Below are positions 16,244 to 56,453 of a stretch of DNA of 64,000 nucleotides, piece after piece. The position numbers were made by a program, and so were the translations under genes. This DNA comes from Takakia lepidozioides (taxonomy: Eukaryota > Plantae > Bryophyta). The stretch lies in NCBI GenBank assembly GCA_030704615.1, contig CM060733.1:70990001-71054000 (forward strand), read 5' to 3'. Below the pieces are notes generated by a model. It saw nothing but the letters and a program-made list of their open reading frames with translations. It made no database searches and was not told the origin of the DNA. Every line of letters starts with the position of its first letter. Within the stretch, counting starts at the first letter, position 1.

Positions 16244-16399
16244 ATCCAGGGAGCCAACTATCTCAAAAATCCACAGTCAGAGTGTTAATGAACCTTGTCT
16301 CCGGAATGCGGCCCCTGATCTTTGCGCAATAACTGCCAACGGTATGCAGTCAGAAAGTGGGGGGCCGTCTGGATGATGTCGGCTGAAGGGGAGAAGCCG

Positions 16400-17990: not shown

Positions 17991-18049
17991 CGATTTGCCT
18001 CTAGCAGTGAAGGATTCCAAGAAAAATCCGAAAAATCAATCGGACACGC

Positions 18050-18579: not shown

Positions 18580-18620
<41 letters not shown>

Positions 18621-19140: not shown

Positions 19141-19176
<36 letters not shown>

Positions 19177-19504
19177 AAACGCCAATTTTCGAGTTCGGGG
19201 CCGAAAACGGTTTAGTCCCAGATCTGACTGGCACCCAAAATCGGAAATTCGGCGCCATTTTTCCAGTTCTGGGCCCAGTCAGATCTGGGACTTAGCCATT
19301 TTAGGCCCCGAACTGGAAAAATGGGGCCGAAAAAAATAAATTTTAAGAAAAAAAACGCCATTTTTCCAGTTTGGGGTCGAAAACGGCTAAGTCCCAGATC
19401 TGACTGGCACCCAAAATCGGAAATTCGGCGCCATTTTTTCAGTTCGGGGCAAGTCAGATCTGGGACTTAGCCATTTCAGGCCCCGAACTGGAAAAATGGC
19501 GCCG

Positions 19505-19550
<46 letters not shown>

Positions 19551-19897
19551 GGCCATTTTTCCAGTTCGGGGCCGAAAACGGCTAAGTCCCAGATCTGGCT
19601 GGCACCCAAAATCGGAAATTCGGCGCCATTTTTCCAGTTCGGGGCCCAGTTCGATCTGGGACTTAGCCATTTTCGGCCCCGAAATGGAAAAATGGCGCCA
19701 TTTTTCGAGTTCTGGGCCCCGAAAATGGCTAAGTCCCTTCGATGGTTGGAACCGCAACTGGAAATTTGGCACCATTTTTCCAGTTCTGCGCCCTATCAGA
19801 TCTGGGACTTAGCCATTTTTGGCCCCGAACTGGAAAAATGGCGCCATTTTTCCAGTTCGGGGCCGAAAATGGCTAAGTCCCTAGGGTGGCTGGCACC
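18050..19897. repeat. Short palindromic and poly(A)-interspersed repeat arrays
   Basis: GGATGGAAATCCGGCGCCGGATTTCCATCC units (18090-18480, 18710-18870); CAGATCTG-centred hairpin units separated by long A tracts. Confidence 0.9.
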
Positions 19898-21403: not shown

Positions 21404-23551
21404 TTGCACAATGCTGGTGGTGTTGAGAATGGCGCAAATCCCTCTAGATTTCAAGATGGGGAAAATATCGCAGGAGATGAAGCAGAAGCGCCAAATGATT
21501 TTCAACATGAAAAACTCATGCAAGAGTTTCAAATCCCCTTATACGATGGGTGCGCTCACAGCCGATTGACCGCCACATTGATGTTACTGAATTCGTGCGC
21601 CACTCACAGATGTACCCACGCATTTGTGGATGAGTTATTCTCATTGTTGAGGCTGGAGATTTTGCCCAAACAGAACAGTTTGCCCAAATTGCATTACGAG
21701 GCAAAAAAATGATATCCATGATGGGCCTAGGATACAAACAGATCCATGCCTGTGAAACTGTTTCGTGGAGAGCTCAAAAATGCAGCAATTTGCCCCAAGT
21801 GCCAGAGTCCCCGGTACAAAGACGGCCGTGGGAAGGTGTTGTGACACTTTCCGCTCATACCCAAATTGAAACGGATGTTTCGAGCTAAGTCGCTCGCACA
21901 GCTTATGAAGTGGCACAACAATCATAGAAGTGCGGATGGCTTGGTCTAACATGCTACAGACAGTAAGGCTTGGTGCCATATTGACAAGACATGGCCGGAG
22001 TTTGCATCAAATCCACGAAATCTGCGACTTGGTTTGGCGCTGGATGGGGTGAATCCTTATGGCACAAAATCCCAATCTTGGTCCACGTGGCCCATCATGG
22101 TGCTCAATTACCTCTACCTCCATGGTTGGCAACGAAGATTTTTTTTTTCATGTTAACACTCCTGATTCCTGGAAAGGAATCTGTGACAAGTGAGAATCTG
22201 GATGTTTACCTGCAACTACTAATGGAGGAGCTGACGACATTGTGGGTGGGAGTTCCAGCCTTGGATGTGGCAGCCAATGAAGGACATCGTGCATTTACTA
22301 TGCGAGCAATCCTCATGTGGTCGATACATGACTTCCCCGCCTATGGCTTGCTATTTGGTCAAGTTCACCAAGGGTACATTGCTTGTCCAGCATGTGGACC
22401 TTCTGTCGATTCCAGATATTCCCCAGCTTGCAAGAAATTGATATTCCAGGGGCATCGACGCTATCTTCCCCACAATCATGCCTATAGAAGATGCAGACTT
22501 TTTAATGGGGCGCGAGATATGAGACCTGCGCCACATACAGTGACATCCACCGAAATCAAGGAGCGTGCACAACATTACAAACAATGGATTGCTGATGGTG
22601 GGACTGCAGGCGCAGAGGACGATCCCTCCAAGCTCCATGGCGTAAAATGACTGTCCATTCTGTTCAACTTGCCTTACTGGGAGGTGCGAATATCACACCT
22701 GGCTTCTGGGGGTTGCAGTGCATTGGTTTCTTTCTATTGTAATTGTTTGTTTACAGAACTTGTACTATGAACAACATTAATGAAAGCACTTACATTAATG
22801 AATTTTGTGCCACGCCATGGTGCAGCATCTTCTCATCCGCCACACTGTGGACACCATGCATTGCGAAAAGAACGTGATGGAAAACATAATGAAGACCATT
22901 TTTGGAGAGAAGGACACCATGAAAGTTCGCCGTGATCTCGAATTGCAGGGCACTCGAAAGCCTCTATGGTTACAACGCCATCCCACCAGAGTGGATACTT
23001 TGGTAATGCCAGATGCGCCATATGTGCTCACAAAACCTGAACAGTGGGTATTGTTGGACATTATCACCAATCTGAAAGTGCCCATTGGCTATGCCTCTGC
23101 TTTCAAGAAGCATGTGGTGAAACAAAAGTTGAGCCAGTTAAAGTCACATGATTATCATGTGCTCATGCAGCAGATCCTCCCTCTTGCTTTACGTGGGTTA
23201 ATGGCGTCCGGGGTTCGCAATGCCATACTAAGAGTGTCTCATGTATTTCAGAAGTTTTGTGCAAGAGTAATTGATCCAACTGAGCATGAGGAATTGAAGA
23301 AGGAGGTGGCATTGACTCTTTGTATTCTGGAGAAAGAGTTTCCACCCTCTTTTTTTGATGTTATGACGCATTTACTCATCCACTTGGTTGATGAACTGGA
23401 TTTGTGTGGACCTGTAGCTTCTCGATGGATGTACCCGGTGGAGAGAGCAATGAAGGATTATAAAGGCTATGTTAGAAACTTGGCAAAACCAGAGGGCAGT
23501 ATGGCGGAGGGCTACGCGTTTGAGGAGGCATTGGGATTTTGTACAGAATAC
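21404..23551 (+). pseudogene. CACTA transposase 2 (TNP2 and DUF4218), truncated
   Basis: PLYDGC; LRLGLALDGVNPY; WSIHDFPAYG; DTMHCEKNV; LKSHDYH; FPPSFFDVMTHL; ends at EEALGFCTEY. Confidence 0.92.
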
Positions 23552-23702
23552 TGGTCTTGTCTTTTGTTGAGTAATAAGAGTGCATAATTTGGAAGGAGTT
23601 TATAAGGAGTGCTAGTATGTCCGGTGGAAGGGTTGGGCTTGGGTTAGCTTGAGGAGGGAGCGAGGTTTTTTGGAGGGGGTATCAGTCAAGTAGCGATCCA
23701 CA
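23552..23702 (-). pseudogene. Short non-LTR element fragment, probable continuation of 54250-55882
   Basis: VDRYLTDTPSKK..(fs)TLPPDILALLINSFQIMHSYYS; same C/A-rich sense strand; joins W-L-V at 55882 in frame. Confidence 0.5.
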
Positions 23703-27070: not shown

Positions 27071-27565
27071 TGCCCTCTCTCCCGCTCGCTCGCTCTAAGT
27101 CCCAACCCTCTCTCTCTCTCCCTCCCGCTCGCTCTAAGTCTGTTCACGCTACTGTGATGGGCAACTTTTTAAGCTTTTTAACCTTTTTGTAAACCCTAAA
27201 AGCCCCTCTTTGATTTTTTTTCTTTTTTTTCTTTTCTTAAAGGAAACCACAGGTCCTTGAGGAGGGGGGAAAATTCACCTGCCTTCATTTATGGGCCATA
27301 AGACGTACAGGACGATCAACGCCCAGACATACTGTCACGAACAATCCCACACACGGGATAAGGCAGCGGGTTTGAACCCCAAACCACCAGGGCGACACAC
27401 GGTGCACTTACCAGCCGATGTGTTTTTTTTTTTTTTAAATTGCATTTTGTTTTTAAAAAAAAATTGATTCTAGTGGTCAGAGTCTCCGTTTTTTCAAAAT
27501 ATAAATACTCATATATTATATATATAACCAGAAAAGCATGTGTTGACATGTGCAGTCATGTAGTG

Positions 27566-27825
27566 ATTCATCCATGTGATGATCTGGCAGAATGCATTAG
27601 AGTGAGAGTCATGAAGTCATATGTCTTTCTAGCAATATACACACGTCATTCTAGTGTAGCCATGACCGCGACTGGTAGTCATATCTGCCATGCCAATATT
27701 CGTGGTCAAACATGTTTGACCTGTGTTCCGCAGAGTTCGGAGCCATGCAGTCACATATACGCCTTCCCCAGACCTGCATTATGACTTCAAAAGCATTTTA
27801 CGACTGCAAATGGCATTTCTGCCAC
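27566..27825 (+). repeat. Dispersed direct repeat, second copy about 62706-62962
   Basis: TTCATCCATGTGATGATCTGGCAGAATGCATTA...CATTTCTGCCAC present at both sites. Confidence 0.8.
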
Positions 27826-28666
27826 AAATCTGTCATGACTGCGCACCCATGGGAGTCGTAAAAGCCGCAATCTGTTGTAGTGTGCCCGAAACTAGTTGTT
27901 GCGGGTAGATGAGGAGCAGCCGAATGGTGGAGCTGCAAGGGGATGCATCGCAGCCCATTGGGAGCTTCAGCTCCAAACTCATGAAGAGGTATGAGTGAAG
28001 AGAGGGGGCTGGTCCCTCTTGTGTGCAAATTAGTGCACTTGTGAAGCATGTGCTGAGTTGGAGTTTCAATCTGAAACTCAGAAGTGTAAGGGCTCTTGGA
28101 GTGGCAAGAGCGGGCTGGAAGGGCAGCAACGAGGCGCCCTAGAGCCAGGGGATATGCATGAGAAGTGCAGGTGCACCAAGTTTGTAAAGGTGTGTATTTT
28201 CAGACTCATTTTTGTGAGCTTCATGAAGAAAGGGAGCTTGTTGGGCAGCATATAGCTTGCTTGTTGAGTTGGGGGCGCTTCTAGTGGGCTGTGAGAGCTC
28301 AGGAGTGCAGGGCGACGGGGCTGATGGCTCCGCAGAAGCCATAGCTCGTCGGCAGCAAGTGCTGGAGCAAACCCCAGCTCGGGGAGAGCTCGGGAACACA
28401 TGGGAACTCGTTGGGAGTTCCAGAGAACGCAGGGAATAGTGGCCGTGATGGACCGTTGGGGCGGTATCACGAGATACCACGAGCCCAGGTTGTGATGGTT
28501 GACCGTGACCGTTGACCATGACCGTTGGAAGTCGTGGTGCGGACACAACGGGTGGGCACGGTGACCAGATCGTGGGGATGGCGGGCCGTGAAGGCTCGTG
28601 GGAGTAGGGCGGGCCATGAGGAGTAGTGGCGGTTAGAGCCACGGAAGGCCGCGAACAGGAAGAGTG

Positions 28667-28700
<34 letters not shown>

Positions 28701-29853
28701 TCACTCGTTTCGTGGGACCTTGATGGGGAGGCTGGGCTCTGAAGAACAACGGTTTTGAGCTAGCTGATCCGGCAGAAAAGTCGGAATTGCCTCCCTGTTG
28801 CGTTTTAACAAAGGGGATTACTTCCCTACAGGTAATCTTTTCGGGTTTTCAGTCCAGTACTTAACTATGGGGGAGATCAGCCTGCAGGTAATTCCTTTGG
28901 ACAAAATGTTGTTGGGGCCTATATGTACCTCTATTTGCTCCATTTTTTAACCTTCAGTGAATGACGTGGTTTCGTGAGGTGGTTCCATTATGAGGAATGG
29001 CGGGTGAACGTAAGGAGGCACTAGCAGACCCTGTGGAGGCTTGCATGGGGCCTTGGAGGCCAAGTTTCATGAGCTCGTGGAGGGCAGTTTGAGGAGTGTC
29101 TACAGGATGCTCTCATGGTCATGCAAGTGGGAGAAGAGAGGAAAAAAGAGGGTGTTGGGACGAGAGTGTGCTGGGGATAGGCATTGCTTTAGCTTCTCTT
29201 CCTCGTAGCTTCCACCTTCTCTGTAGGCCGAGACCTTTCCGTAGGTGGAGGCAAGAGTTAGTCCGGGTTTGGGCTGGGTTGCAGGAGCGACACTTTGGAG
29301 AGATTTTTGGTGTGGGGGAGTTGTTGTTTTCATTCTTGTGTTTGGATCCCCTCCACACCTGCATACTTGATTGTGCGCCATGCTAGTTTTGTGTGGGCGC
29401 TTGATTTTATAGGTGGTGGACTCGGGCTTGATCGCCAATCCCACCCTAGAGCATGCTGTCGATGGTGAGGTTGGGTTGATGACCAGTCAGACCATCTTTG
29501 TTTCTCCTGTGGTGAGGTTGGAGGTGATGACCAGCCAACCATAGGAGTGCCTGCGGTGGATGCAGGTGCAGGTGCAGGCTATATTAGGAACCTAGTATTC
29601 CAGACCATAAGCCGCATCAGGTTCTCTACCCGGTTACCTTGTGGAGAGGGGGTTAGAGACAGGTTCATGACCGGTTGAGTGCCAGTTTGGCAACATGGAG
29701 GTGCCACTAGTTGCTGGGGAAAGTGCCGGTACGAGCACTAGCGATACTAGCGGGTATACGAGACGAGGTGTGCAGTTTAGGCCACCTTCACCTCCTGTGT
29801 CTTCTGCGGAAGGTTCTGATTCGGATTGTGAATCAGGATGACTCACACCGGCG

Positions 29854-31204
29854 GTGCAAATTGTTTCCTTGCCATTGTTGTGGGACACGATGGAGGAGAT
29901 GTATAGAGCCACCAAGGGGCCACGAAGGTACACTGGGGCGGTGGGCACCATTGAGTTGGATGATTTTATCCAAGAATTTGATAGTTGGTGTGACTTGCAG
30001 CAAATGCGCAATCCACAATTGTTTACGCATTTTATGGCATGGAAGGGGCTGTTTCAGCACCTTGAGGGGCCGCCCATGGATGATTACCATGAGTTTAGGC
30101 GGGGGCACGATGCTGAGATCGAGGAGTGGAGGATGTACTGGTCACCCGACTATGTCTCCATCACTAGAGGCACAAGGGCAGCAGCCACACCGGCAGCAGC
30201 AGCTACAACAGCAGCTGCCACAAGTAGTAGTGGGACTAGTGGTACAACAACTACGACGTCCACCCAAGATACTGCTGCACCAGCACCAGTGGCGGTGCCT
30301 ACCTTCAACCCTATTGTGGAGTTCTTCGAAGAGTTGAGAAGGAACTACCAAGGGGTGAGGACAGAGAAGTTGAAGAGCTCGCAAGAGTTCCAACGGAAGC
30401 CTACTGAGAGCTTGAGGGAGGCTTTCACTTGCATGAGGCGCTTGATTAATGTAACCCAAGGGGTTACGGAGGCTCAGGCAGTCCAATTCTGGTATGGGAT
30501 ATTGGACAAGGAGCTGAGGAGAAGGGTGCGGGATGCAACTCTCCTACAAGCGGCCCAACCCACCTTAACAAATGTGTTTTTGCTGGCAGAGCGGATAGAG
30601 CTCAACATGGTGGAAGAACGAGTGGTCATGGTGGGATTTGCTAAGGAGGCACCACGGGGTAGTGGTGCTCCTAGCCAGCCACTACCTCAATGTGCTCAAG
30701 GCAACAAGGGGGCTCAGGTGAAGCCCAGGAAAGGGCAGAGAGGACCTCAGATGCAGGGGTCTCTCTCTTCATTTGCTGGCCAACAACGGGCGGATGTGGT
30801 GTGCTGGACATGTGGAGGACCCCATGTTAAGAAGGATTGCCCAGAGGGAGGCAATGGTTTAGCACCGGCACAGCCTACACAGTTGCAGTGTGGGCATTGT
30901 GGCAAGTACGGACATGGAGAAGCCCAGTGCTATGGTTTGCATCCTGAGTTGCGCCCAGGACAGTTCCAAGGGAACAATGGTGGCCGGGGGCGAGGTGGAG
31001 CAGCCCAGAGAGGACGAGGTGGCCAGGCACGAGGTGCAGGCCAAGGGCAAGCTCAACATGGTCGGAGGTCAGGGTGGTAACCAAGGTATGGCCAACCGGC
31101 TTCAGAAGCTAGAGCAGAGGCTCGCTGCCATGGCCACAGCTCAGGTGGTACCGGCTCTAAGGCCGGATGGTCCACCTCCTGCTCCTGAGGGAGGAGACAT
31201 GTGA
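29854..31204 (+). pseudogene. Gag of the DNMT-Gypsy element
   Basis: ELDDFIQEFDSWC; FQRKPTESLREAF; CWTCGGPHVKKDC; CGHCGKYGHGEAQC; RGG-rich tail. Confidence 0.85.
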
Positions 31205-31879
31205 GGCATGGGATTCATGTGCGGGGCAGCACTTCCACTAGTGAGGGGTGCCACTACCACTACCACTGTGGGTGTGGCACTACTACCACTAGTGCCGGGC
31301 AGCACTACCACTACCACTACCACTATGTGCGGGGCATGACTACCACTAGTGCAAGTGGAGTCAGCTGCGGCAGTGACTCGAGGAGCAGCACAAGTTCCTA
31401 AGCCACGGGGTGCGGAGGTGGAGTTGGATCCACAGCGTGGGGAGGCAAGCCGTCAGGCCAGGCTTCCTCAGTCATTCACATAGCACCTAGTTCTCGCCCG
31501 ACTGTTACCGAGGCGGAGGTTACTATGCCATTGGGGAGAGCTACACGGGCAGCACCACTACCTAGTGTTGCCAAGGCTACGGCAGCTAGTGTGCTGCTGG
31601 GGGCGGCCACAGCTGTGTGTCAGGCTCCATTGTTCTCGGCTACCATGATTGCGACGCTGGGGGTAAGACCAGCTGAGGTGTTCAGGCTGGCAGCTACACT
31701 TTATGAGAGTGGGGAGGTTATTTCATCTTCTGCGGAGATAGTGGGAGGTGTACTGCCGGAGGGATCCTTGGATGTGAGGGTCAAGACTGCCATGGCGGCG
31801 CCATGGCAAGCTGCAACTGCCAGGTTGATGGAGCTGCCAGCTAGACCAGCCATTGAGCGCGCCATGGTGACACCTGGAG

Positions 31880-32290
31880 TTGTCATGTTAGACAACCAGG
31901 ATGACATTTTCTGCTTGAATGGACCGGCAGGCAAGAGGTACCGGCCACTGCGGGTCTTATTAGACTCGGGAGCTCAGCCATTGATGTTGGGCAGAGCTGC
32001 TATTGCAGGCTTGGGCCTCACGGAGGCGGATATGGAGTCGTGCCCTTTCCAGATACAAACATCTCTGGGAGGATCAGAGCAGGCTCGGGGCATGACACGG
32101 CGTGAGTTGACTATCCGACTACAGCCGGATCATTCTACAGATAACTCAGTGATGAGAGCCAAGACCGTTGTGACAGACGCGGTCTCATACGATGTCCTTG
32201 TTGGTGGGGCAGTGTTGTATCCCATGGGCTTCACCCTGGATTTTTGGGAGGAGTCAGCTTCCTATAGGCCTGGATGGCAGTCAGGGGAGG
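31880..32290 (+). pseudogene. Aspartic protease domain
   Basis: RVLLDSGAQPL and YDVLVG. Confidence 0.8.
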
Positions 32291-32670
32291 GCTGGCGTGT
32301 GCAGCTCCCTATGACGTTCATAGGAAGAGTTGCGGTTGCCCAGCGAGCCAAGATGCCAACACTGGCAGCATTCACAGCTGCAGTGACTTGGCCTGGAGAA
32401 TTGTTGGATGACAACACTCATTCAGAGGATGTGTCACCTCCGGGAGAGCAGGATGACATGTATGGTATGGCGGAGTTGCCTGCCATGGTTGCTCACACTC
32501 CATTGTGGGGCTCGAGTAAGGATTTGCAGTGGGTTGCTGATTGGCGTGTGCAACAAGCCTGGGTAGAGGCTTTTGTACCGTCAGGAGAGGAGGATAGCGT
32601 AGGGATTGCACCAAGACCACCTCAGTTGTCACCATTGGACACCACACCGAACGTGTGGCAATGTCCGGAT

Positions 32671-33630
32671 GAAGGCATTTGCCTTCTGGACTTGTTTGGC
32701 GGGATCAGCACCGGGTTGGCTGCTGTTCTACAGGCAGGTGTACGAGTACGACGTTACTTGTATGCAGAGAGGGATGAGACTGCATGGCGCGTCTCACTCC
32801 GTCATGTTGCTCAGTTGGTGCAGCAGTACCCTGAGTTGTTGCCGGTGTCTGCGGTTCGTGGATATCAGCAGGCCTTGCCAGCAGACATTTCGTTGCTGGG
32901 GGCGTAGGATTTGGAGCGGGGTGGCTCCATTGATTTGGTAGTGGCAGGTTGGCCCTGCCAAGGGCATTCATCAGCCGGGCATGGCAATGGATTGCGAGAC
33001 TCGAGGTCGGGTCAGTTTTGGGAGATGGTGCGGGTTTTGCGCCACTTACAACTTCATCAGGCTGTATCTCCAGCATACATCTTGGAGAATGTGCCACTGA
33101 TGGGCGATTCTCGGGCCAGGGTGTTGGCCAGTGTGCATCAAGTCCGGTCGTGGCTTGGGTCAGCAGTGTTGCTGGATGCAGCTGCAGTGGGGTCACGGGC
33201 TCGTCGTCCACGGTTATGGTGGACTAATTTGATGCCACCCGCACTGCTTAAGCGTGCATTTGATGGGGTGCAGCGACCAGCACACCTCATAGTTGATAGC
33301 ATCTTGGACACAGGGAGGCAGTCTCAGCGTGTGAGACACGATGACCGTCTACCTTTGGCAGTGGTCAATAAGGTGGGTCGACCATGAGCAGCACTACCTA
33401 CACTGCTCAGCTTCCCAGGATAACATGCTTTCTGGGATAGTGGACCTGGCCTACTGTGGGATGCTTAGTTGCAACAATTAGTGGAGCCTAATGTCGACAA
33501 GCGAGAGCGGGCTATGGGTTTTTCCACTGGGACCACGGCGGTGCCTTCTCTTTCTGAGGCATCACGTCGTCAGGTGTTGGGGCAAGCGATGGATCTAAAT
33601 TGCTTTACCTGGATTATCAGCTTGGCTATG
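32671..33630 (+). pseudogene. C5 cytosine DNA methyltransferase domain
   Basis: Motif I LDLFGGIS (32686), II YAERD, III ADI, IV AGWPCQG (Cys codon 32956), VI ENV (33085), VIII RRPRLWWTN (33202), IX ERAMGF, X LGQAMD (33577); single frame with in-frame stops. Confidence 0.92.
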
Positions 33631-34049
33631 GCTGAGCAACGTAGAGTGCGGAGTGCACTTCCCTTGACGGTCTCTCTGCCTACGGAGACGGTACAGGCAG
33701 TGAATAGGGGCGAGCCGGTGAGGACCACGGGGTGTAGACATCCATGACACACGTGGGAGGTGCTCGAGGTTCAGAGGGAGCTGGCAGCCAAGGCGACTGT
33801 GATGGATGAGGTTGGGGAATCTTCTCGGGTTGAGGAGGTCCTCAAGGATGAGATGATGGGGCAGGATGAGGCCTTGTCATTGACTGAGCAGGCAGGGAGT
33901 ACTGCTCAAGAGGTTGCGGCATAGCAACCACGGGACGCGTCTCCTACCTCTAAGTCTGTTGGACTTAAGGTTGCAGTTACGGAGGACAATTGGGAGCCTG
34001 ACATTGGACCCATTGTCACTGGAGGAGAGAGACAACGTATACGACGGTT

Positions 34050-36727
34050 CCTGAGGGCTTACAAGAATTGCTTTGCCTTCAGTTTGAAGGATTTGGGAGC
34101 ACTGAAGGGTTAGGAGATTCGTATTGAGTTGGCCACGGACACGCCAATCTTTCGGAGACCCTATAGATACAGTGGCATGGAGAGGTTTTTGATTCAGATG
34201 AGGACTCAAGACTCTGGGAGGCTGGTTTGGTGGAGCTCTCTGTTGGAGAGTATGCTTTAGCCACGGTGATGTCAGCCAAGAAGGATGTCTATGGCAATTG
34301 GACGGAGAGATGTATGTGCGGTGATTACCGGCCTGTAAATCGTCAGACCAAGTCCGGTAGGTATGCCATGCCCACACCGGAGGAGATCTTTGATGCCATT
34401 GGGCATGCCAAGGTCTTTAGCACTTTGGACTTGCAGTCCGGATATCACCAGTTGCCGATCAAGGAGGCGGACAAGCAAAAGACGGCATTTTGGGGGATCA
34501 ATGAGCATGGGAAGGATTGCCTATATCAGTGGCGGTTCTTGCCATTCGGGTTTAAGAATGCTCCTGCAGAGTTCCAGAGAGTCATGGACAGGATTCTAGC
34601 AGGGGTGGACTTTGCTCGGTGCTACATAGATGACATCATCATCTTTAGTACTACGGTGGAGGAGCACGAGAGACACCTTCAAGTGGTGTTTGAGCGCTTG
34701 AGAGCGCACGGATTGAAATCACATCCAGGGAAGTGCAAGTTCTTCCACAACCAGATTGAGTATCTGGGCCACATAATATATCCTGGAGGATTGGGGGTGC
34801 AACAGACTAAGGTAGAGGCCATCGCACAGACTCCACGTCCCACGGATGTGAGCCGAGTTCGAGCTTTCATGGGGTTGGCAAACTACTATAGACGATTTGT
34901 CAAGGGATTTAGTGCTATTGCAAAGGCTCTAACCAAGCTGACCAATGTAAACCAGGAGTAGCAGTGGGAAGATGAGCAAGAACGAGCTTTTCAGGCGCTC
35001 AAGGCGAGGTTGACCTCGGCGCCCATCTTAAGACAACCTATCAGAGGGCGTCCCTTTCAGCTGCATACAGATTGGAGCATGTTGGGGCTTGGAGCGGTGC
35101 TCACACAGGTGGATGATGAGGGAAGAGAGTTTGTAGTGGCTTATGCTAGCCGCTTGAACAACACTGCAGAGTCTAAGTATAGCTCATATGAGGGGGAGTG
35201 CTTAGCTGCAGCGTGGGCCGTGGCACACTTCAGGTGCTATCTATACGACAATCTCTTCACCATTGTCACGGATCACCAGCCACTCAAGTGGTTGATGGAG
35301 TCAGACAAGCTTACGGGGAAGCTTGCACGGTGGGCACTTATATTCCAAGAGTATGATTTTCAGGTTGTGCATCGACCGGGTTTGGTCAATAGGGATGCAG
35401 ATGGATTGAGTCGCAATCCATTCACGAGCCAATAGGATGACACTGGAGCTCGGTGGCATGGTGAGACGGACGAGGAGATGGTGCCAGGATGACATGCATC
35501 TGCCTTTTGTGTATCTTGGCATCGGGAGGTCAGGTTGGACCTACAACAGGGATGACTGTAGACGGAGTGTCTAAGGACCCTGAGGCTAGTGATGAGCCAG
35601 GTGGTGCCAGAGATATACATGAGGATTCGGTTGTGTTGGACTACCTCCGCACTGGAGACACGACAGCTAGTGTGACTGCCAAGGAGAGGGATCGAATCCT
35701 GCAACGAGCCAAGAGGTTCAAGTGGGAGGGGATACACCTGCTTCGAGTGTGGGAGGATGGTTGGGTGAGGATCGTGCCTCACCCAACACAGCGTGCACGG
35801 TTAGTGCGGCATGCCCATGAGGAGTTGGGGCATTTTGGAGTGCGACGCACTCATAGTTTACTGCAGGGGCAGTATTGGTGGCGTGGTATGCACACAGAGA
35901 TGCAACAGTTCGTGGCTAGGTGCATGGTGTGTGACAGGGCGCGTGTTTCATTCAACGCCCCTACACCACAGTTGCATCCCTTACCCATCATGGGATTGGG
36001 CTATAGGTGGAGTCTTGACTTTGCAGGGCCTTTGCCACTGACGATGCGTCACCACAGATATGTGTTGGTGATGGTGGAGCACTTCTCCAAGTGGATTGAG
36101 TTGGTTCCATCGCCTGACAAGGCTAGTGAGGGGGTTGCATATGCATTCCTGGATCGTGTGCTTAGCCGATTCGGTGCTCCAGCTGAGGTACTCACGGACC
36201 AAAGGAGAGAGTTCTTGGGGGAGTTTCAGGCTTTGTGTGATAAAGCCTTGATAGACCACTGTACCACTTCTCGGGGTCATCCTGAGGCCGATGGCTTGGC
36301 AGAGAGAGTGGTTCAGACAGTGAAGAGGGGTTTGCGCAAGTATGGCTTGCAAAAGTGACACTTAGGAGATTGGGATCTTCAGGTACCTTGGTTAGCCATG
36401 GGCTACAGGTTTAGCAAGCAAGCATCACTTGCCTCCTTCTCACCATATTTCCTTCTTTTTGGCCGAGAGCCGGATTTGCCTGCATCTATTCGCAGGGAGA
36501 CTGCAGTAGTCCTCAACCTTGATGATCCGGATGTGTGGACACAAGCATGTGCCCAGTGGGCAGAGTTGTTCAAGAGAGTCATGCTTATGGCTTTTGAGAA
36601 TCTTGCTATTGCCCAACACCGAAACACATTGAGGTATGCCACTATACGTGGAGGGGGATATCGGCCAGGTATTCGGCGTTTCCACCCTGGGGACTATGTG
36701 TATCTGCAGCAGACAGCGCCTACGACC
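34050..36727 (+). pseudogene. RT, RNase H and integrase of the DNMT-Gypsy element
   Basis: ORF fragments 34227-34961, 35010-35435, 35489-36358 and 36398-36727 with canonical Gypsy motifs. Confidence 0.93.
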
Positions 36728-39700
36728 TTCACCCAGTGCCACTTCTGTAATATCGTGAACCACTCGTCGGGATCGAGGGTCCTTGTGAAGGACCACCTTC
36801 CAGTTCCCTCGTGAACTTTTTTCATCCGAGAAAAAAACTTGCTCCACCTGACTAGGGAATGTCCAGGGCTGCTCCATCCCAGGCAACATGCGACTGAAGT
36901 CAACCAAGAGAAATCCATAATCATCTCGTTTCATGGTGGCATTCCGGCCCACCATGTGTGACCTCACCCATGTACACAAGAACAGAATTGGGTGAAGAAT
37001 TCCGTAATCCAGTTGAATTATTTCTCTTACAACACCCACATATTCCAATTGGGATAACACTCGTCTGGACATACCTGCTCTGTTTTCGCTTTCCTGATGG
37101 AATACTTGAGCAACTCCAGAATCAAATGTCACCCTGTCTCTGGCGCCAGTCCCATCACTTATTGCTCGAAAGTGATTGCCGTAAGCATACATGGACTTGA
37201 AGCCCAATGACTGCTGTTGGTGGTATACATAAATGGCATATGTCCAAATCATAGGACTCACCTGAACTCACCTTGCGTTGGACAGCACCTTCAATCCATT
37301 CATGGAATGGAGCCAGTAAGCGCATATCTGTTGGGTATGGAATTTCTCCATTGTGGTGGTCTTGGTCTTGTCCACAAAGGTATGCTGTTCTGAACTTAGT
37401 GCGGGATGCTTCTATGAGTGCCATCTCCTCTTCATAGGCCCTGTCCAAATGAGAATTGCAAATTAGGATTACAGCTTATACCATTGGCAGAAATGAAACA
37501 CACAGGATATGCTAAGCAACATACTTACTCAAGGAATGGTTTCATGCAATCTGTGTTGTGCAAAATATACTCGTGTGCACTGTCTCGTTCTTGAATGGTG
37601 AGGACTCGTACAGTTCCCAATCCTTCAACCACCTCCCCACTAACTGAGTCTTCTTCATTGGAGTCCCACACCCTTCGGCTTGTAGCATGAAATTCAGCCA
37701 TATACTCAGTTAGAAACCCTAGGGCCTCATCCAAAGCATACCCTTCCGCCATGCTCCCTTCAGGTCGGCTCATATTCCTTACATAGCCTTTTAATGTCTT
37801 CATATACCGTTCCATAGGATACATCCAACGGCTAGACACGGGACCACACACCTCCAATTCGTCCACAAGGTGTACAAGCAAGTGAGTCATGATATCAAAA
37901 AATGACGGAGGGAATTCTTTCTCCAGCAGACACATAGTGATTGCAACATCTTCTTTTAAGGCCGGTACCTCAGCTGGATTAATGATCTTTGCACACACTT
38001 TTTGGAAGACTCGAGAAAGCCTCATAATTGCCATCCGTGGACCCTTTCCCAATACCCCTCGAATGCAAAGAGATAAAATCTGCTGCATCATTACATGGTA
38101 GTCATGGGTTTTCATTGTAGACAGTTTATTGTCAACCACATGTTTCTGGAATGTGGCAGCATAACCTGTGGGGGCCTTTACTGCAGCCAATGTTTCCAAA
38201 AACAGCACCTTCTCATCTTCAGTAAGAACATATGGGGCCAAAGGCTTGACCAACTTGTTTGGGTGAGAGGGATGGGGTCTCAACCACAAGTGTTTACGAA
38301 TGACATTGAGTTCAATATCCTTCCTAGATGTGGCTGTGTCCTTCTCCCCAAGAATGGTTCTCAGCACATTCTCACACAATTTTTTTTCACAATGCATCAC
38401 ATCCAGTGTGTATCAGATGAGTAAGTCTTTCCAGTATGGCAATTGGTTCAAAACAGTGACCCGTTTCATGCCATGTTCCTTTGAAGGGTCCAGTTTTCCC
38501 CCCTCAGCCCCTCCCATTGCGAGATACAACTCTCTGGTTGTAGCCCGGTCAAATTGCTCACTTGCAATGACCACCATAGGAGCTGCTCTATGTTCTACAT
38601 GTCCATTAAAGTGGGACGAGTTATTCCTATAGGGATGAATAGCAGGCAAGTATCTCCTATGACCAAGATACAAAACTTTTTTGCATGCCTTGGAGTACCT
38701 GGAATCAACATTAGGGCCGCAAGCTGGGCAGGCCTTGTATCCCCCGTGTGCGCATCCTGCTAGCAACCCATAAGCTGGAAAGTCGTGGATTGACCACATC
38801 AAGATGGCCCTCATGCGAAATGACTGTTGCCCCACTAGGCTACTTCCATCCAATGCCTCCACACCAACTTCCCACAACAATTTCAGCTCATCCACAAGGG
38901 GCTGCAAATAAACATCTGCATTGTCATTTCCCACAGATTGTGGTCCAGGAATCAATAAAGCCAACATCGTGAAAAATGGCTTAGTACACAGCCATGGTGG
39001 AAGATTATAGTTTACCAACATGACAGGCCAAGTTGACCATTTGTTTGATTTATCACTGTAAGGATTGACACCATCCCAAGCGAGACCCAATCGCAGATTT
39101 CTGGGGTCCGCTGCAAACTCAGGCCATTTTTGGTCAATGTGGGCCCAAGCCTTGCTGTCTGCTGGGTGCCTAACCAAGCCATCCAAACTTCGATTCTTAA
39201 AGTTCCATGACAATAACTCTGAGATGGATTTGGCTTTATACATTCGAAGCAGCCTTGGAATGATAGGGAAATGTCGAAGGACCTTACGAGGTACTGGTGT
39301 CTTCGTACCCACCACATAACGACATGCCTGACATTTTGGACAAACCTCCAAATTTTGAAGCTCCCTTCTGAACAACACACAACCTTTCGGACATGCATGT
39401 ATACTCTCGTAATGAAGCCCGAGTTCCATTATGAGTTGTTTTGCCTCATAGTGGGACTTTGGCAGGCAATCGTCTGCTGGCAATAGTTGTCTTCCTAACA
39501 ATGTAAGGAGTTCATCGACAAAGGTGTTTGACACACCATGGGTTTGACAAGCATTTAACAGCAGTAAGGTAGCAGACAATCGAGATGAAGAACTCCCTAC
39601 ATACAAAGCCCTGGATGCCTCCTGCTCAAAATGTAAGGCACTCGCTGCACCACGATCACCCTCGCTCTTCAGTCCACCATCAGTCTGCTCTGGCACTCCA

Positions 39701-40270
39701 TCTGTGTCCCATTGGCCCTGTGCTCCATCTCCCGGTTCCTCATGTGCATCACCAGTTTGCACCCCATTATCTGTAGTTGCGAATGTCTCCCGGAGCATTC
39801 TAAGCATGTCAAGATTACGATCCAAGGTATCAGGACCACCTGCAGGGCTGGTTTCCGTTCTAAACCCCTCATGTTCGTCTCCAGAGTTTTCCTGCTTATA
39901 AGCATATCAGTCCACATGTCAATCCACAATAAGATGGGGAGTTTAGGGTTGGAAATGGTGGATGTGGAACGTGCCATAATACAGGCACGTGGCAATAGGA
40001 AAACGGGCATGTACAATACTCTACACCTTACAACAATCCCGCTACCAGGAATTTGAACTGTTTCTTATAATTTCAAAGTATGCATCAGGGTTAAGGGAAG
40101 AGAATCCACAGATATGCACCGGGAGTTCTCGCAAGTTAGGATCTCGCAAGTTCAAAGCAGATGACGCTTAGCCCGGCCAATGGTTTGCCAGTTCCCACCA
40201 TGACAGGCATTGCATGGACATAGAATTTTCCGAAGACCCAGTCTTCTTGCTCGCGCTTCCTCTAGTTTCC
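36728..40270 (-). pseudogene. CACTA transposase 3 (transposase-associated domain, TNP2, DUF4218, DUF4216)
   Basis: RKILCPCNAC near 40200; IHACPKGC; LRLGLAWDGVNPY; MHCEKK; RWMYPMERYMK; EYVGVVREI; PSQVEQVFF. Confidence 0.93.
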
Positions 40271-42417: not shown

Positions 42418-45400
42418 GTGCAGAGTTCAGTAAAAAAAATGAAGGGAATTGCAGGGAAGGATGCGAACGAGCATAAGTCTCTTACTCCAGCAAAGTGTGC
42501 ACCAACTATTGCGCCAACTGCTGTGATGAGTGGCGCGGTTGTTTCCCCTTACGAAAAACCAGCCCCGCCCACTCCACAGACTGACGTTCCAGCTCCCTTG
42601 TATCCACCAGTATCGGCTCCTCCCTCGTATCCGCTTATGTACCCACAGTATCCTGCCATGTCAGGGTATAATCTGCATGGGCACATGCCGTATCCTCACT
42701 ATCAACCTCCAAACAATGATTCTCAGTGCCAGAATTACAATTATTTTGCTCCACCTGCAGGCGCTCCAATGCATGATCCTAGTCAAGGTGGGTATTCCAT
42801 TTACCACCATTATGGAATGCATCCCCATAGTATGTATCCTCCTCGGCCTATGTACAACCAACCTACTTCCTCCCTCTATCCTACCAGCCCTGCAAGACCA
42901 CACCAGGGGCAGGTCCAGTATGGTGGCCACCAACCTTCAGGATCCAACTACAGTGGAGTACAACTGCTGGCACCTTCGAGCTTCACTGCATCGCGGCCAC
43001 CTCTTTATCCAACATCTCCAGGTACACCTAATACCCTGAAAAGGAAAGGCATTCTGAAACAGACAGAGGATGCATTTGCTCCGCATCATCCTGTGGGGTG
43101 GGAGACAGCAGTCCAGCCCCAACAGAGTGAAGGTGGTAACATGCATGGTATTGCTGAAACCTTGCAGGATTCCAGCCTTAGTCCTGGGGGACATCAGGTG
43201 TGACTCCTATAGAACGCAAAAATGCTTTAAGGAGGGAAAGAAGGGCACTTGCAAAAAATCTGAGAGACCAGGCTGCTCAGAATGTGGCTGTAGGGAGGAG
43301 GAAATTTTTCATTTATTGTGATGAACTTGGAAACCCTGAAGGTCCTGCTCGGAACCAATGGATGACAGCTCTGCGAGGGCAGTGTCAACGTTTGTTGGAC
43401 TGGTCATTGTATGCTCAGGATCAACCATTACACTTAATTGAAAAGATCATGGAGATCCTGGCTTCAGATTGGGAATACGGACCTCCTGGTCTTAACATAA
43501 AGGCTATTACAAAAACAATTTGCGGGCAGCTCAAGTACCAACGAAATAAGTTGTTCAAAAATTACTATAGTGTGGGGCTGCCCAAACCCCATCATGTGCC
43601 AGATAAGACATGGGCACAACTAGTTGTTACTTGGGGTTCCACTGATTTCAAGAAATTTCAGGCAAATGGTGTCAAGGCGCGGGGATGTGTGAAGAATACA
43701 TCTCGATCAGGTCGTAGTGGAATCAGCGGTGTTGTAGCACGACTAGTATACTTCTCTTACAACATAGGAAGTTCCCACATTGTTTTGCATTGACAAACTT
43801 TATGTGTTGGGTTTTTTTGGCTGGAGCTCAGAGTCTATTCCTATCACCATTGAATTAGTACACATTGCTACTACTTGGGGGCCTTCTCAGAGTTGGGCGC
43901 CAGCAAGAAACTAAGCACTCTTATTGAGGGGGAGTCATTGACGCTATCCTAGATAATTCTTTACTGTTGGCAGTGTGCTATGCTAGTCATTAACACTTGC
44001 AAGTTTGTTGCAATCACAGGAGAAGGAGACTGGACGTACACCAAGTTTGCAGGAGATCGCTGGTAACGCCAGGAGTGACAAAGGCTACGGCTCGGGGTGT
44101 ACAGGCAGTGCAACCACAACGGTATATAAACTCAGTACCAATTTTGGTGTGAATTACATATTCGTGATTTCCATGCCATTGCTAGTTGCCGTTTGGTTCT
44201 GTTTTCTTACTAGTTCATCAGTCAGTGTAGTGAATTGTTACTTTGGAGGTGTTCTATGTGATGGGGCAGGGAATTGGTTCACTAGCAGCTCGCCTCGATG
44301 CTATGGAAAACAAACAAGTGCAGATGGAAGCCAGCTCCAAGGCAGCTTTGGAAGCAGTCCAAGGCCAACTGGAGGCAGCAGCTGCATTCAACATTGCGCT
44401 CGCAGCTAAACTTGGCATGAATGTGCCAGATTCGGAACCTACAGGTCCACCATGCACCACCTTTGCGCCACACACAACAAATGAGACTATTTCTCATGTT
44501 ATGGGCTCACCACTCAACCTGTTCAAGGCAGTTTCTTCACCGCCACCAAAGCCAAACACAATAGGCTCATTGTTTGGGCTTTCAGAAATGGAGGGGGATG
44601 ATGACATGGAGGGTTGGTCTGAAGGTGAACTCAATCCATCCCCCCATATTGTTGAGGCAACTGCAAAGTGTTCATCCGTTTTGTTGTCCCCTACACCAGT
44701 AGCACTTCCGACATATGTACTACCCTCTCAATATGCCTGTGTGGTCTCCATGAATTTGCAGAGTGCCCCACAGAAAGGTGTGTCTTTTGTACATGATAAT
44801 CATGTACAAGTTGTTGGTAATTGCCCTTCGGCAACTGAGAGGCAGAAACACATCCTTATACTTGACTTGAATGGATTGTTATGTGAGAGCAGACTACGAA
44901 CAAGGGAACACCTAGAGCCCACTGTCACCTCCAGACCTGGGTGTCAGGAGTTTCTGGACCGATGCCTTCAGATTTTTGATGTAGGTGTATGGTCTTCCAT
45001 GTCATTGAGTAATGTCCTTCCAGTTGTGATTGCATTGTTTCCTGGGAAGCAACCAAAGATGGTGCTTCACCAAGACTATTGTGACCAACCTGTGGGAATG
45101 GTGGACCCTCTCAATCCTTCTAAAACTATCATGTACAAGAACTTATGTAAGTTTTGGAAGGACTACAGCCATTACAATCCAACCAATACTTTGCTAGTGG
45201 ACGATTCCCCACTCACTTGCTTACCCAACCCTACAAATAATTGCATCTTCCCGTATCCATGGAAGTTGAGGGATCAGCCAAACTGCAAGAGGCTTATGAA
45301 AGAATTACTGCCTTGGTTAGAGGGTGTATCCAAGGCTGCACACATCCCTGAGTATGTGTCAGGGCACCCATACAGATATGGGCAGCCCAACTACTTGTTC

Positions 45401-46370
45401 AATACTGCAGCCATGGGTAGTGGATCACAACAATCTGCAAAGGCATCCGAACCAGGCTTCCTGCTGCCAGAGTTCCAACGACTTTGCCTCCCGATGCAAC
45501 AACAAAGCATAATCAAAGAAAGGTGAGAGCAAAAGATTCAATGCTTGGGCGCGCGGGTGGATTTGTATTGTTAATGCTACTTCACAATGTGTGTCATTCG
45601 TGCTATTCTCATTTTTTGATCATGTGTCATTCAATATGCAGATGGCGAAACCAGTGAAGCGTTCAATGGGCAGGGAAACTACAATATGTGCTATCAATCA
45701 GACTACAACCACAGTGGATGTAACTGAACCATTGGGTGACCAACAAAATCCGCACAGTGTAAGTACTTCCTTTGTCCTCTTTTGTTTCCTTGTCTGATGC
45801 TGGATCAATACACCCCCTATGTATCGCTGTGTAGCTGCAGGATTGACAACCTACAAAGGTAGTTTTGTGACATTGTCCTACCACATCCATGTTGACCATG
45901 CAGAACCTGCTATCAACTAGGTATGGCACCGTTCCACCTTTGATCATGTCAGCATGGAGTATAGAGACAGGCAAATGCAATTCAGAATTGGAAGTACTGC
46001 AATAGGTAGGGTTGGGGTGTTTGCTGGAAGAACGAGGATGCATTTTGCAGGAGTGCCAAGCTGTCAGTCTCTGTTCTCCAGGGTTCATTTCTGATATAGG
46101 AATCTGGTTTTTGTTCAGTTTCAGATCGGCGACAAGGTGTTCTTGTTTGATCCTTGTGCACCAAAAAGAAGGGCAGGTGTGGGATATATTGCTGGATTTC
46201 CGAAAGCAAATGTGCCAGACAACTATTACCGTATCCATGTGAAATCGGTCATGATTTCAGAGGTTGTGTTGCCGTACCCGGACTACTCTGTTACCCCTAA
46301 TCATACCACATTGGGTGACACGTAGGGAAGTGCCACCTTATGGTCTGAAAAGTTTATTAAACACGCGTGA
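42418..46370 (+). pseudogene. Multi-exon CACTA ORF2-like gene: Pro-rich region, Transposase_24-like domain, HAD/NIF phosphatase, TNP1-like C-terminus
   Basis: KPHHVPDKTWAQLVVTW..ARGCVKNTSRSGRSG (43200-43745); LILDLNGLL..RPG..DVGVWSS..KNL..TLLVDDSP (44850-45370); YYRIHV..LPYPD..TLGD..TLW (46130-46370). Confidence 0.65.
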
Positions 46371-46612
46371 TATTGAAGATGCTACAAGTTTAGTTTAGTT
46401 TTCTTTATGGATTGAAGGTTGCTGAGACAGGTGAACAAAACTGCTCTTCTGACATGAACAGTATTTTTTGAATTGATGCTCTTGCTATTCTCATGTATGA
46501 TCACAAGATCCCCTTGTTCAAAGGCAACTTCATTTTCCCACATCAAGCCAACGCATCAAAGCGAGTGACTATGACTTGAAGGGGAGCTTACCGAAGTGAG
46601 GTGCACGACACT

Positions 46613-46624
46613 TGGTATCAGAGC
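46613..46624 (+). promoter_or_regulatory. Primer binding site (tRNA-Met)
   Basis: TGGTATCAGAGC after ...GCACGACA-CT. Confidence 0.9.
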
Positions 46625-46666
46625 TTAGAGTTCAGTACGTGATCGTCCTTGGTATTGGCCTCATCA

Positions 46667-49600
46667 TGGGGTTGGGCAAGCCAAAGCCAAAGCGGAACGG
46701 CCCAAAAGATGATGATCCTGGTGAGGCCGATGGGGGCGATGTGTCACCGAGGCGGCCGTTTGAGGAAGCGATGCATGTTTCCAAAAACGAGGCCGCTCAA
46801 GAGCGGGAGGAATCCGAGGAGTCGGAGCCCGAGGAATCCCTGAGAGCTCCGACCGACCAACAGATGCCTCCCATGCCGGCAGCCTTTTGGGAAGGGTTGT
46901 TGGCGCAGTTTGGCGGGACGCTGAAAGACGTGTTGAAGGCGGCTAATGCCTCTTCCACTAAGGCAAAGTTTAAGGTGAAGCCTAAGGAACCCGACACCTT
47001 CGAAGGCGTCCGAAATCGGAAGGCACTCAACACCTGGCTCCTGGAGCTAGAACAGTACTTCCGAGCGGCCAAGTTGAGTGACGAGGATCGGGTGGAAGTG
47101 GCTCCCACCTATTTGAGGGGCTATGCTCAACAATGGTGGCAGAAACGCCTTCACGACCGAGGTCCAAGCCCGGAAACCTTGAACTGGAGTGGATTCAAGG
47201 AATTGATGAAGAGACAATTTGTGCCCCTCAACGCGTCCTAGTTTGCCCGGGACAAGATGAGGAATTTGAAGCAAATAGATGACATTCGGGGATATGTCCA
47301 GGCTTTCAATTTGCATTTGCTCGAAGTCGCGGACATGGCAGAACCAGAAATGGTCTTCAACTTTGTGGCGGGACTGACCCCATGGGCCAGACGGAAGTTA
47401 GAGGAGAAGCCACCTAAGACTTTGAACGAGGCAATTGAGAGGGCTGAATGTTTCTCGGATGTCCCTAGGGGTGAAAGACAAGGCCGTACGGAGCTGAACC
47501 ACAAGAAGACCCGGCGGGAAGGTGACTCCTTCCGACCGGAAAAGAAGTGGGATAGGCCACACGACGACAATGGCACGTGGAAATCGAAGGGAGGGCCTTC
47601 ACAAGTCAAGGCGGCACCCGGTGCTTCGAAAGGAAAAGCAGGTGGAGCGGCCTATGGCGGACAGAATGCAACCTTTGATGGAGTGTGTTTCAATTGCGGG
47701 GAGCCCGGGCACATGGCCAAGAAGTGCACGAAGCCCCGACAATTGAACATGACTCGGGCGACCACAGAGCTGTCGGAAGATACCATCAGTCGCTTGGTGG
47801 AAGCGGTGGTCGCCAGGACTTGCAAGGTAGGCAAATTTTCTTGTGAGTTGTATCAGGAAACTGGCGCCTTACGAAAAGGGAGTCAGTTATTGTTCGTGGA
47901 TGGGATAATATCCGGAACTAATGTGTCGTTGTTGGTGGACATAGGAGCGTCGCACTCCTTCATGACACCGGCAACGGCACAAAAGCTGGGACTCCCGACA
48001 AGTGACGTGGGGGCCTCTATTGAGGTGCGTTCTGCCAAAGGAGAACCGCAATTGGCGACAAGGTTGGCGTTTGATGTTCCTCTTCAACTGGGGAGTGGGA
48101 GGGACGTGAGAACTTCACCATCTGCGAGATTGATGGAGTGGATCTCATTTTGGGGATGACCTTTTTGAGCAAATCCGGAGCGGTCATAGATGGCCGCAAG
48201 AGAGTGGTCACGCTGCCATGTGGGAATGGTGGCGAGGTTTTAAGAGTGTCGGAAACGCCCAAATCTGTGGGAGGGCGAATAAACCTTCTGTCAGCAAAGG
48301 AGTGGGCCGTGGAGGAGGCACACGAGCCCCAGTTTTTGCTCTACATTAGAGAAGTGAAGGGAGAAGGCGATGGGGAGCCGAGCCCAGATTGGATCAAGGG
48401 GATTTTGGAGAAATACTAGGATGTGATGCCGGAGGATTTACCAAGCGGTTTGCCACCGCGAAGAGGAGTTGACCACAAGATTGAGGTGATACCGGGATCG
48501 GAACCGCCTGCCAAGGCGCCCTACCGGTTGAGCCACAGAGAGTTGGTCGAGCTGAAGACTCAGCTCAAAGATCTAATGTCAAAGGGGTACATCCGGCTGA
48601 GTAAGTCACCTTACGGAGCCCCGGTGCTATTTGCAGATAAAAAGGATGGGACGCTGCGGATGTGTGTCGATTACAGGGCTCTGAATAAGGTGACTATCAA
48701 AAACCGATACCCTTTGCCAAGGATCGACGACCTCTTCGATCGGTTGGCAGGAGCGAAGTATTTCAGCCAGATCGACTTGCGCTCCGGCTATCATCAAATT
48801 CGGGTGGCGGAAGGAGATGAGGAGAAGACCGCGTGCAGGACAAGGTATGGTTCATATGAGTTCTTGGTGATGCCTTTTGGGCTCACCAATGCACTAGCGA
48901 CATTTAGCACGCTGATGAACAGCCTTTTCCAGGAGTGGTTGGATGACTTTGTGATCGTGTACATCGACGACATCTTGGTGTACTCGAAAACAAAGGAGGA
49001 GCACTTGGAGCACCTGAAAAGGGTGTTCCAAAAATTGCGAGAAGGGAAGCTGTATGCCAAAGCTTCAAAGTGCGAATTCGGGGTCACAAAAGTGGAGTTC
49101 CTGGGGCATGTGATTACACAGGATGGGATCAGAATGGATGACAGGAAGGTGAGGGCAATCTTGGACTGGGAGCCTCCGACTTCGGTCCCGGGAGTGCGAT
49201 CCTTCCTAGGACTCGCCTCCTATTACCGAAAGTATGTGAGAAATTTTGCCAAGATCGCGGGGCCGCTGTCAGACCTTCTGTGTAAATCCAAAGTCTGGGC
49301 ATGGAACACCTTTTGTGGCCAAGCTTTTGCTGAATTGAAGCAGCGGATGGCGGAAGCTCCAGTCTTGAAAATCCCGGAGTTCGATCTTCCGTTCGAGATA
49401 CATACAGATGCGTCGGACTTCGCGATTGGGGGTGTACTGATGCAAGATGGACGTCCAGTGGCTTACGAAAGTAAGAAACTGAATGAAGTGGAGCGACGGT
49501 GGCCGACGCACGAGAAAGAGATGAAGGCGGTGGTGCACTGTCTTGAGCTTTGGCGCCACTATGTTGGTTCCAACCCAGTGAAGGTGTTCACGGACAATGT

Positions 49601-56451: not shown

Positions 56452-56453
56452 GC

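Follow-up and report, generated by a model that had tools for sequence, protein, structure and literature searches.

We analysed a stretch of 64,000 nucleotides of the bryophyte Takakia lepidozioides (GenBank assembly GCA_030704615.1, contig CM060733.1, positions 70,990,001 to 71,054,000, forward strand; hereafter the window, position 1 being its first letter). It holds a Ty3/Gypsy retrotransposon in which a DNMT3-like C5 cytosine DNA methyltransferase (DNMT) lies between protease (PR) and reverse transcriptase (RT) and is separated from the latter by a conserved in-frame stop codon. The element has the Ty3/Gypsy domain order PR-RT-RH-IN, RH being RNase H and IN a DDE integrase, and RT, RNase H and integrase were each matched by Pfam. 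The initial annotation of the window had the element start at 29854; its 5' end was found at 27831, where TGTCATG stands exactly at the point at which a repeat with a second copy at 62706-62963 is interrupted. The 3' end, at 36729, is a cut abutting the interior of a CACTA-like region, so that this copy has lost the C-terminal end of the integrase along with its 3' repeats; the loose ends of sister contigs fall at 36727-36729. No CACTA terminus was found at this junction (36729/36730), where it is an internal part of the CACTA-like region that meets the cut integrase, and neither a second copy of repeat A nor a pair of long terminal repeats (LTRs) was found within the 64-kb window. The parts of the element, and its right-hand neighbor, are the following.

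27831..28704, forward strand: 5' terminal repeat A, starting with TGTCATG, a terminal motif as in relatives, and interrupting a repeat; the 3' end (28704) is provisional, placed solely by the resemblance of TTTTCA/CTC to the relative L081
29890..31400, forward strand: gag with CCHC knuckle (30889), 42-58% identical to the N-terminal parts of Gag-PR-DNMT proteins from Marchantia and Sphagnum
31843..32300, forward strand: aspartic protease, LLDSGA at 31957 (PF13650, E 0.023, a weak match below the cut-off)
about 32650..33650, forward strand: DNMT3-like C5 cytosine methyltransferase with all catalytic motifs and four in-frame stops (32905, 33385, 33421, 33466)
33922..33930, forward strand: conserved in-frame stop TAG-CAA-CCA (CAR-YYA context), a predicted programmed readthrough site; junction stop in 24 of 27 rows compared
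33970..34958, forward strand: reverse transcriptase, YIDD at 34623 (Pfam RVT_1, E 1e-32), with a stop at 34111 and a frameshift near 34211
34962..35432, forward strand: RNase H (Pfam RT_RNaseH, E 5e-35)
35600..36729, forward strand: DDE integrase (Pfam Integrase_H2C2 and rve), truncated short of the PHD finger found at the C-terminus in relatives
36730..39906, reverse strand: CACTA/EnSpm-like transposase region outside the element (Pfam Transposase_21, DUF4218, DUF4216)

The segments bearing protease, DNMT and RT, at 31525, 32911 and 33469, lie in one common frame (position mod 3 = 1), as the initial annotation had recognized from the open reading frames (ORFs) at these positions. This frame carries the protease motif LLDSGA (31957), the DNMT motifs (32686-33594) and then the RT N-terminus, and it is interrupted by seven stops between protease and RT (32905, 33385, 33421, 33466, 33745, 33922 and 34111). 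The gag frame is broken near 31062 and 31400, and the gag region of the window gave no Pfam match. The window copy is a decayed, 3'-truncated Gypsy element and is dead, as the initial annotation held on account of its in-frame stops; of these stops, the one at 33922 is a conserved feature of the family and not decay.

Motifs of the DNMT were located at 32686 (LDLFGGISTG), 32755 (YLYAE), about 32941-32964 (AGWPCQG), 33076 (YILENV), 33196 (RARRPRLWW), 33505 (ERAMGF) and 33577 (LGQAMD); the motif numbers used here follow the customary scheme. The Pfam check proposed at the outset, made on the translation with X at the stops, gave a match to PF00145 with an E value of 1.8e-11 and 44.5 bits (cut-off 22). 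All 29 PDB sequence matches were DNMT3A/B/C, with motifs I, II, IV, VI, VIII and IX-X aligned. An AlphaFold model of the domain reached a pLDDT of 85.8, and the Foldseek rows listed for it were all DNMT3A/B/C, the best with an E value of 7e-18 and a TM score of ~0.65 by query and 0.8 by target. Motifs I to X stand in the non-rearranged order, with catalytic PC, ENV and RxR, on a DNMT3 fold, and the PCQ, ENV and RxR motifs are retained across distant intact family members. Host plant DNMT3s combine an N-terminal MTD with a C-terminal DUF3444 (PMC6453930), whereas the element DNMT does not stand as a host gene and showed neither DUF3444 (P0002, Pfam) nor introns. The DNMT of the family is likely to be catalytically active.

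Among homologues of 640-2000 aa, a length window that favours fusions, 48 of 48 had a retroelement domain beside the DNMT, arranged as PR-DNMT in 41, as RH-DNMT or DNMT-IN in 4 and as DNMT-RT in 3. The protease region of the window was 31-79% identical to the same region in 41 of these 48. Seventeen of the 48 were named land-plant proteins (15 from Marchantia polymorpha, one each from Calypogeia fissa and Sphagnum fallax), and Calypogeia, Sphagnum troendelagicum, Marchantia or Riccia sorocarpa accounted for 12 of the 120 shorter homologues listed (137 in all); the presence of this lineage in land plants, initially an inference, is now attested by named proteins. No vascular plant, Physcomitrium or Klebsormidium name occurred among the homologues listed, with ~8,000 candidates scored per search. 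In run X1, which may be the source sample, 75,105 contigs were placed on 27500-37200 and covered all 30 bins, contig depth not being equal to copy number and not being used for ranking domains. One 2,173-nt sister contig (X12) reaches from the end of the DNMT through RT and RNase H into the start of the integrase. The DNMT is a family trait, namely, an intrinsic polyprotein domain of an abundant Gypsy family that includes members in liverworts and peat mosses. That it should be a chance nested insertion, or a host DNMT3 gene recently captured by the window copy alone, is hardly tenable: nothing was found in favor of this idea, and the homologues rule it out, 41 of 48 having the DNMT at the same position. 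In addition, the element DNMT lacks the introns and the DUF3444 of host plant DNMT3s, and the 2,173-nt contig links it to the RT, RNase H and integrase that follow. Sister copies carry the domain at the same position, with no separate insertion boundaries or host-gene features, in agreement with the initial view of the DNMT as a polyprotein domain.

In the DNMT tree, the window sequence fell within a 19-row clade (SH-aLRT 99, quick search) that also holds the liverwort and Sphagnum sequences; these form a 15-row subclade to which the window does not belong. The tree of RT and RNase H showed the same broad groupings, but the stop-bearing group was less well supported there (86/95). The outgroup consisted of five phage-type DNMTs from a viral collection and two similar metagenome loci, the viral collection containing only distant phage-type DNMTs (57 loci, 24-54% identity across short segments). 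Of what had been asked of such trees at the outset, the grouping of the window with liverwort and Sphagnum element DNMTs was obtained; the trees include neither Klebsormidium nor host DNMTs, and the best sequence and fold matches of the domain are DNMT3. The DNMT is under purifying selection in relatives, the dN/dS between intact relatives being 0.14 (L075/L076, pS 0.21) and 0.13 (L075/L079). Between the window and peat-moss-type copies, the DNMT gave a pN of 0.18-0.19 and a pS of 0.71-0.73, and close dead copies gave a dN/dS of 0.36-0.69, which is similar to that of other domains and hence uninformative.

Two further groupings were observed. The DNMT of a Riccia sorocarpa protein (P0126), a short sequence, is placed by the tree among Sphagnum copies (SH-aLRT 99), apart from Marchantia, for which transfer or paralogous lineages are possible explanations. 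A GC-richer related clade (L093, L095-L099, L101, L103-L109, P0045, P0046, P0048 and P0049) has this DNMT placed between RNase H and integrase, and a PHD finger was present where the integrase end was visible; the domain has therefore shifted position within a related lineage.

Both the DNMT end and the RT start were available in 27 rows (26 loci plus the window). An in-frame stop was found at the same DNMT-RT junction in 24 of them (19 TAG and 5 TAA), and the three stop-less rows (L090-L092) represent one divergent family. The codon after the stop was CAR in 23 of the 24, YY followed at +4/+5 in all 24, and the full CARYYA was present in 7. As background, CARYY was found at 1.2% of the 5,246 codon positions of these domains and behind 5 of the 265 remaining in-frame stops. 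The +2 codon encodes Pro, Leu or Ser, and the YY pattern is therefore not due to one conserved amino acid. The linker around the stop is poorly conserved, and in the pairs compared the synonymous sites are saturated or nearly so. In L075, a 7.2-kb frame extends from gag to PHD and is interrupted by the junction stop alone; the 100 codons that follow this stop contain no Met. Many family proteins in the database end 93-163 residues past motif X, and the window stop lies 114 residues past it. At the stops 33421, 33745 and 34111, nearly the whole depth of the sister contigs departs from the window sequence, and at least some sisters lack the frameshift near 34211 (the full depth in X5, X6 and X12, roughly one tenth in X1). 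Among the sister-contig rows listed, there was no variant at 33922-33930, while 33918 was listed at a depth of 895,600. A conserved stop in a leaky context, separating the DNMT from RT in the land-plant Gypsy-DNMT3 branch, is what is new here.

Single-ORF relatives of 2,240 and 2,300 aa have the order Gag-PR-DNMT-RT-RH-IN-PHD, and no stop was present at the junction in the deeper-branching P0348, P0353 and L090-L092. Since the single-ORF clusters branch outside the stop-bearing clade when the root is set by the distant phage-type enzymes, the stop looks derived within the family, as far as these sequences tell. The copies bearing TAA, considered as a possible clade, did not form one in the tree. 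A conserved RNA stem 3' of the stop is not supported, z being below -3 in 3 of 7 copies and the window showing none (mononucleotide shuffles only).

CAR-YYA is a sufficient readthrough signal in tobacco mosaic virus (TMV), with short and long products at about 10:1 (PMC2754532, PMC2194720). Low-frequency readthrough at the CAR-YY stop is, on this context, what we would predict with some assurance. Ribosomes would mostly terminate at the junction, giving Gag-protease-DNMT as the major product, and occasional readthrough would extend it by RT, RNase H and the PHD-tipped integrase. If readthrough holds, it follows that the DNMT is present in particles at a Gag-like stoichiometry. Packaged in this way, the enzyme would meet the new double-stranded cDNA in the particle and could methylate the freshly made element DNA at CG, or else the integration site.

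A different account takes the stop as a true one, with RT, RNase H and integrase made from a spliced mRNA (the TAG serving as acceptor), from an internally started mRNA or by re-initiation, the DNMT still being produced at the level of Gag. It would suit the ATG that is the third codon past the stop in most peat-moss-type rows, the T-rich stretch ahead of the peat-moss-type TAG (pyrimidine fraction 0.57-0.60 in L059 and L086) and the precedent of Tca2, which has a junction promoter (PMC2754532, PMC2194720). In the window, however, the first Met past the stop is codon 85 and the pyrimidine fraction before the stop only 0.37, and L075 and L100 have no Met within 100 codons. The TAA of 5 of the 24 rows keeps the stop while losing the splice acceptor, yet these copies form no clade and may represent post-insertion changes. 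As splicing and re-initiation also leave the conserved CAR-YY and the common frame unexplained, we consider this account unlikely and retain readthrough.

That the cDNA or the integration site is the substrate of the DNMT is, by analogy, a matter on which we are evenly divided. CG methylation is proposed because SymbioDIRS-Dnmt3, a retroelement-borne enzyme, methylates CG de novo in yeast (PMC5890265), and such methylation of cDNA or integration site would be the most economical function, a choice in which we see about as much for as against. CpG at codon positions 3-1 is depleted in the window element, with 39 observed and 137.6 expected (0.28), the corresponding ratios for the window's two chromovirus copies, which have no DNMT, being 0.80 and 0.72; this depletion is compatible with self-methylation and not diagnostic of it. 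Readthrough could also be real while the main targets of the abundant DNMT lie beyond the particle, in host chromatin or competing elements, or while the domain is kept for DNA binding and not for catalysis. A surplus of DNMT over RT and integrase suits such a trans or structural role, the Klebsormidium domain had no activity in yeast, and de Mendoza et al. leave the role of the DNMT open (PMC5890265). The preservation of PCQ, ENV and RxR in distant intact members speaks against it, as does established retroelement biology, by which a Gag fusion is expected to keep the domain in the particle, and we hold this possibility to be quite improbable. The explanation that we favour, and regard as reasonably probable as a whole, combines a Gag-PR-DNMT frame, a leaky stop, near-Gag packaging and likely CG methylation of the element's own DNA.

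Several observations weigh against this explanation. The 24 stop-bearing rows amount to only about five or six independent lineages and include the duplicates L068/L069, L080/L081 and L086/L088. Seventeen rows of peat-moss type have CAA-CCC or CCT, without the +6 A, and the ATG seen past the stop in most of them would permit re-initiation. No RNA stem was predicted after the window stop (z -0.04), a similar-looking gag stop of Tca2 gave no readthrough in a yeast reporter (PMC2754532, PMC2194720), and the listed sister-contig rows leave aside 28 rows of the table. The isolated KnitGypsy DNMT of Klebsormidium was inactive in yeast, a result its authors call inconclusive (PMC5890265), and KnitGypsy is, like host DNMT3, outside the DNMT and RT trees. 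Finally, the CACTA copies in the window are CpG-poor too (0.42), so that host methylation can explain the depletion in the DNMT element, and the chromovirus control consists of one family.

The anatomy of the relatives was taken from 80 metagenome loci, of which 61 were mapped. Their integrases end in a PHD finger, and their termini read TGTCAYG...CAYGACA, with TG...CA ends. The repeats follow the layout A-coding-B-A-B, complete in L081, L090 and L091 and partial in L065; two ordinary full-length LTRs were thus not what the relatives showed, their repeats being split, and the window copy has the 5' TG end only. Target duplications of 4 bp, within the 4-6 bp of Ty3/Gypsy elements, were found at L081, L073 and L094, i.e., at three of the five loci with both ends, L090 being mismatched and L091 ambiguous. 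The internal B-A junction is a near-palindrome, CAYGAYA-GY-TGTCAYG (L065:12618, L075:8653, L079:8232, L081:10344, L090:12464 and L091:12471), in which the right and left integrase ends are joined via two bases, and it may template both cDNA ends. The identity of a Troyka element was rejected, as Troyka has CG...CG termini, a 3-bp target site duplication and metazoan hosts.

No tRNA primer site was found after repeat A in the family. In L081 (1837-1858 with 2017-2038, 22 nt at 95%) and L091 (2834-2851 with 2964-2981, 18 nt at 94%), complementary segments pair the sequence directly 3' of repeat A with a site ~25-30 nt behind a TATA-like box in A, which suggests Tf1-type self-priming in two distant subfamilies. 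Among peat-moss-type copies, a perfect 17-nt self-priming duplex was present in two of seven and one of at least 10 nt in five of seven; no such duplex was found in the window copy (8 nt, null mean 7.35). All this taken together, one may go as far as to imagine an old, high-copy, self-priming, split-repeat Gypsy lineage of bryophyte-grade land plants in which a TMV-type leaky stop evolved as a means of filling the particles with active DNMT3 at capsid-like amounts. Its cDNA would receive CG methylation ahead of an integration guided by the PHD finger, and plant CG methylation would thereby be seeded independently of host de novo enzymes, a scenario that we deem doubtful.

Elsewhere in the window, none of the frames tested was clearly a host gene. 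Two chromovirus-type Gypsy copies, at 1380-8400 (reverse strand) and 46600-52800 (forward strand), are ~77-93% alike by segment, with no DNMT detected; the latter has a TGGTATCAGA primer site after 46610. CACTA-like fragments (Transposase_21, DUF4218, DUF4216) lie at 10765-11577 (by eye only), 21985-23587, 36730-39906 and 53472-54345, and the best matches of the window CACTA transposases are mostly 40-50% identical. Adjoining CACTA-like ORFs, a 430-codon frame at 44234-45526 (forward strand) has a NIF-like phosphatase domain (E 9e-17) and is possibly a transposon accessory gene. A 605-codon frame at 54149-55966 (forward strand) contains a chromodomain (E 3e-6) and is followed by short tandem repeats at 55951-56742. 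Arrays of ~72-73-nt and 96-nt repeats occupy 13287-13892, 16318-17994 and 18013-19897; the 72-nt repeats are inverted around the 96-nt array and resemble subterminal repeats of DNA transposons.

The role of a retrotransposon-borne DNMT, open since the 2018 paper, can now be put to the test in the genetic model Marchantia, for which gene models of the family are already annotated, e.g., Mp4g09160 and Mp8g17980. As a quantitative clue, the leaky stop makes it appear that the element needs far more DNMT than RT or integrase, which would fit an enzyme coating the whole cDNA. Family gene models may inflate DNMT counts in bryophyte genomes, and the conserved stop will be annotated wrongly, either as decay or by way of false introns that skip it.

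The closest known system is KnitGypsy-Dnmt3 of Klebsormidium nitens, described by de Mendoza et al. (2018, PMC5890265) as combining an intronless Dnmt3 with Gypsy domains and DIRS-like repeats, and the Klebsormidium element named in the initial annotation proved an apt comparison. Both have Gypsy domains, an intronless, non-rearranged Dnmt3-type DNMT in the polyprotein and purifying selection, and the DIRS-like split repeats are found here in the relatives L081, L090 and L091. KnitGypsy-Dnmt3 differs in being reported from one alga and in having the DNMT share an ORF with RT and RNase H, while in the liverworts and mosses studied here a conserved stop stands between them in the same frame. No mention of PHD, readthrough or self-priming was found in the text of PMC5890265, figures such as Fig. 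4c lying outside the comparison. In the literature text searched, bryophyte copies, PHD in Gypsy-DNMT3 elements and readthrough were not found mentioned, although supplement trees may include bryophytes, and none of six Marchantia gene identifiers of the family occurred. PHD fingers in algal Gypsy elements are already known (10.1101/2022.06.16.496473), and PHD, Marchantia and Klebsormidium are absent from the main text of the Neumann et al. 2019 classification (PMC6317226). The lack of a tRNA primer site, together with pairing between the primer site and the start of the transcribed repeat in two distant relatives, recalls Tcn1 and Tf1/sushi, Tcn1 differing in that it belongs to the chromoviruses with ordinary LTRs (Neumann et al. 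2019, PMC6317226). DIRS elements use a tyrosine recombinase (PMC5890265). The union of a DNA methyltransferase with a chromatin reader in a retroelement is shared with EpiLTRs and SymbioDIRS-Dnmt3 (bioRxiv 10.64898/2026.05.21.726589; PMC5890265), EpiLTRs being distinct by their DNMT4-related DNMT, DAM and chromodomain (bioRxiv 10.64898/2026.05.21.726589). As to the stop, an in-frame stop followed by CAR-YY(A), which yields much of a short product and little of a long one, corresponds to the UAG-CAR-YYA of the TMV type and to murine leukemia virus (MuLV), Tca2 and SIRE1; in MuLV, Tca2 and SIRE1 the stop comes after gag, whereas here it comes after protease and DNMT (PMC2754532, PMC2194720), and the epigenetic enzyme is therefore on the abundant side. 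Gypsy-DNMT3 elements have been cited as reported from streptophytes and dinoflagellates (2025, PMC12344493), and "streptophytes (Gypsy-DNMT3)" are named as already described (bioRxiv 10.64898/2026.05.21.726589). The kind of element is thus one already described in a streptophyte, and what is new is the placement of the DNMT by the stop.

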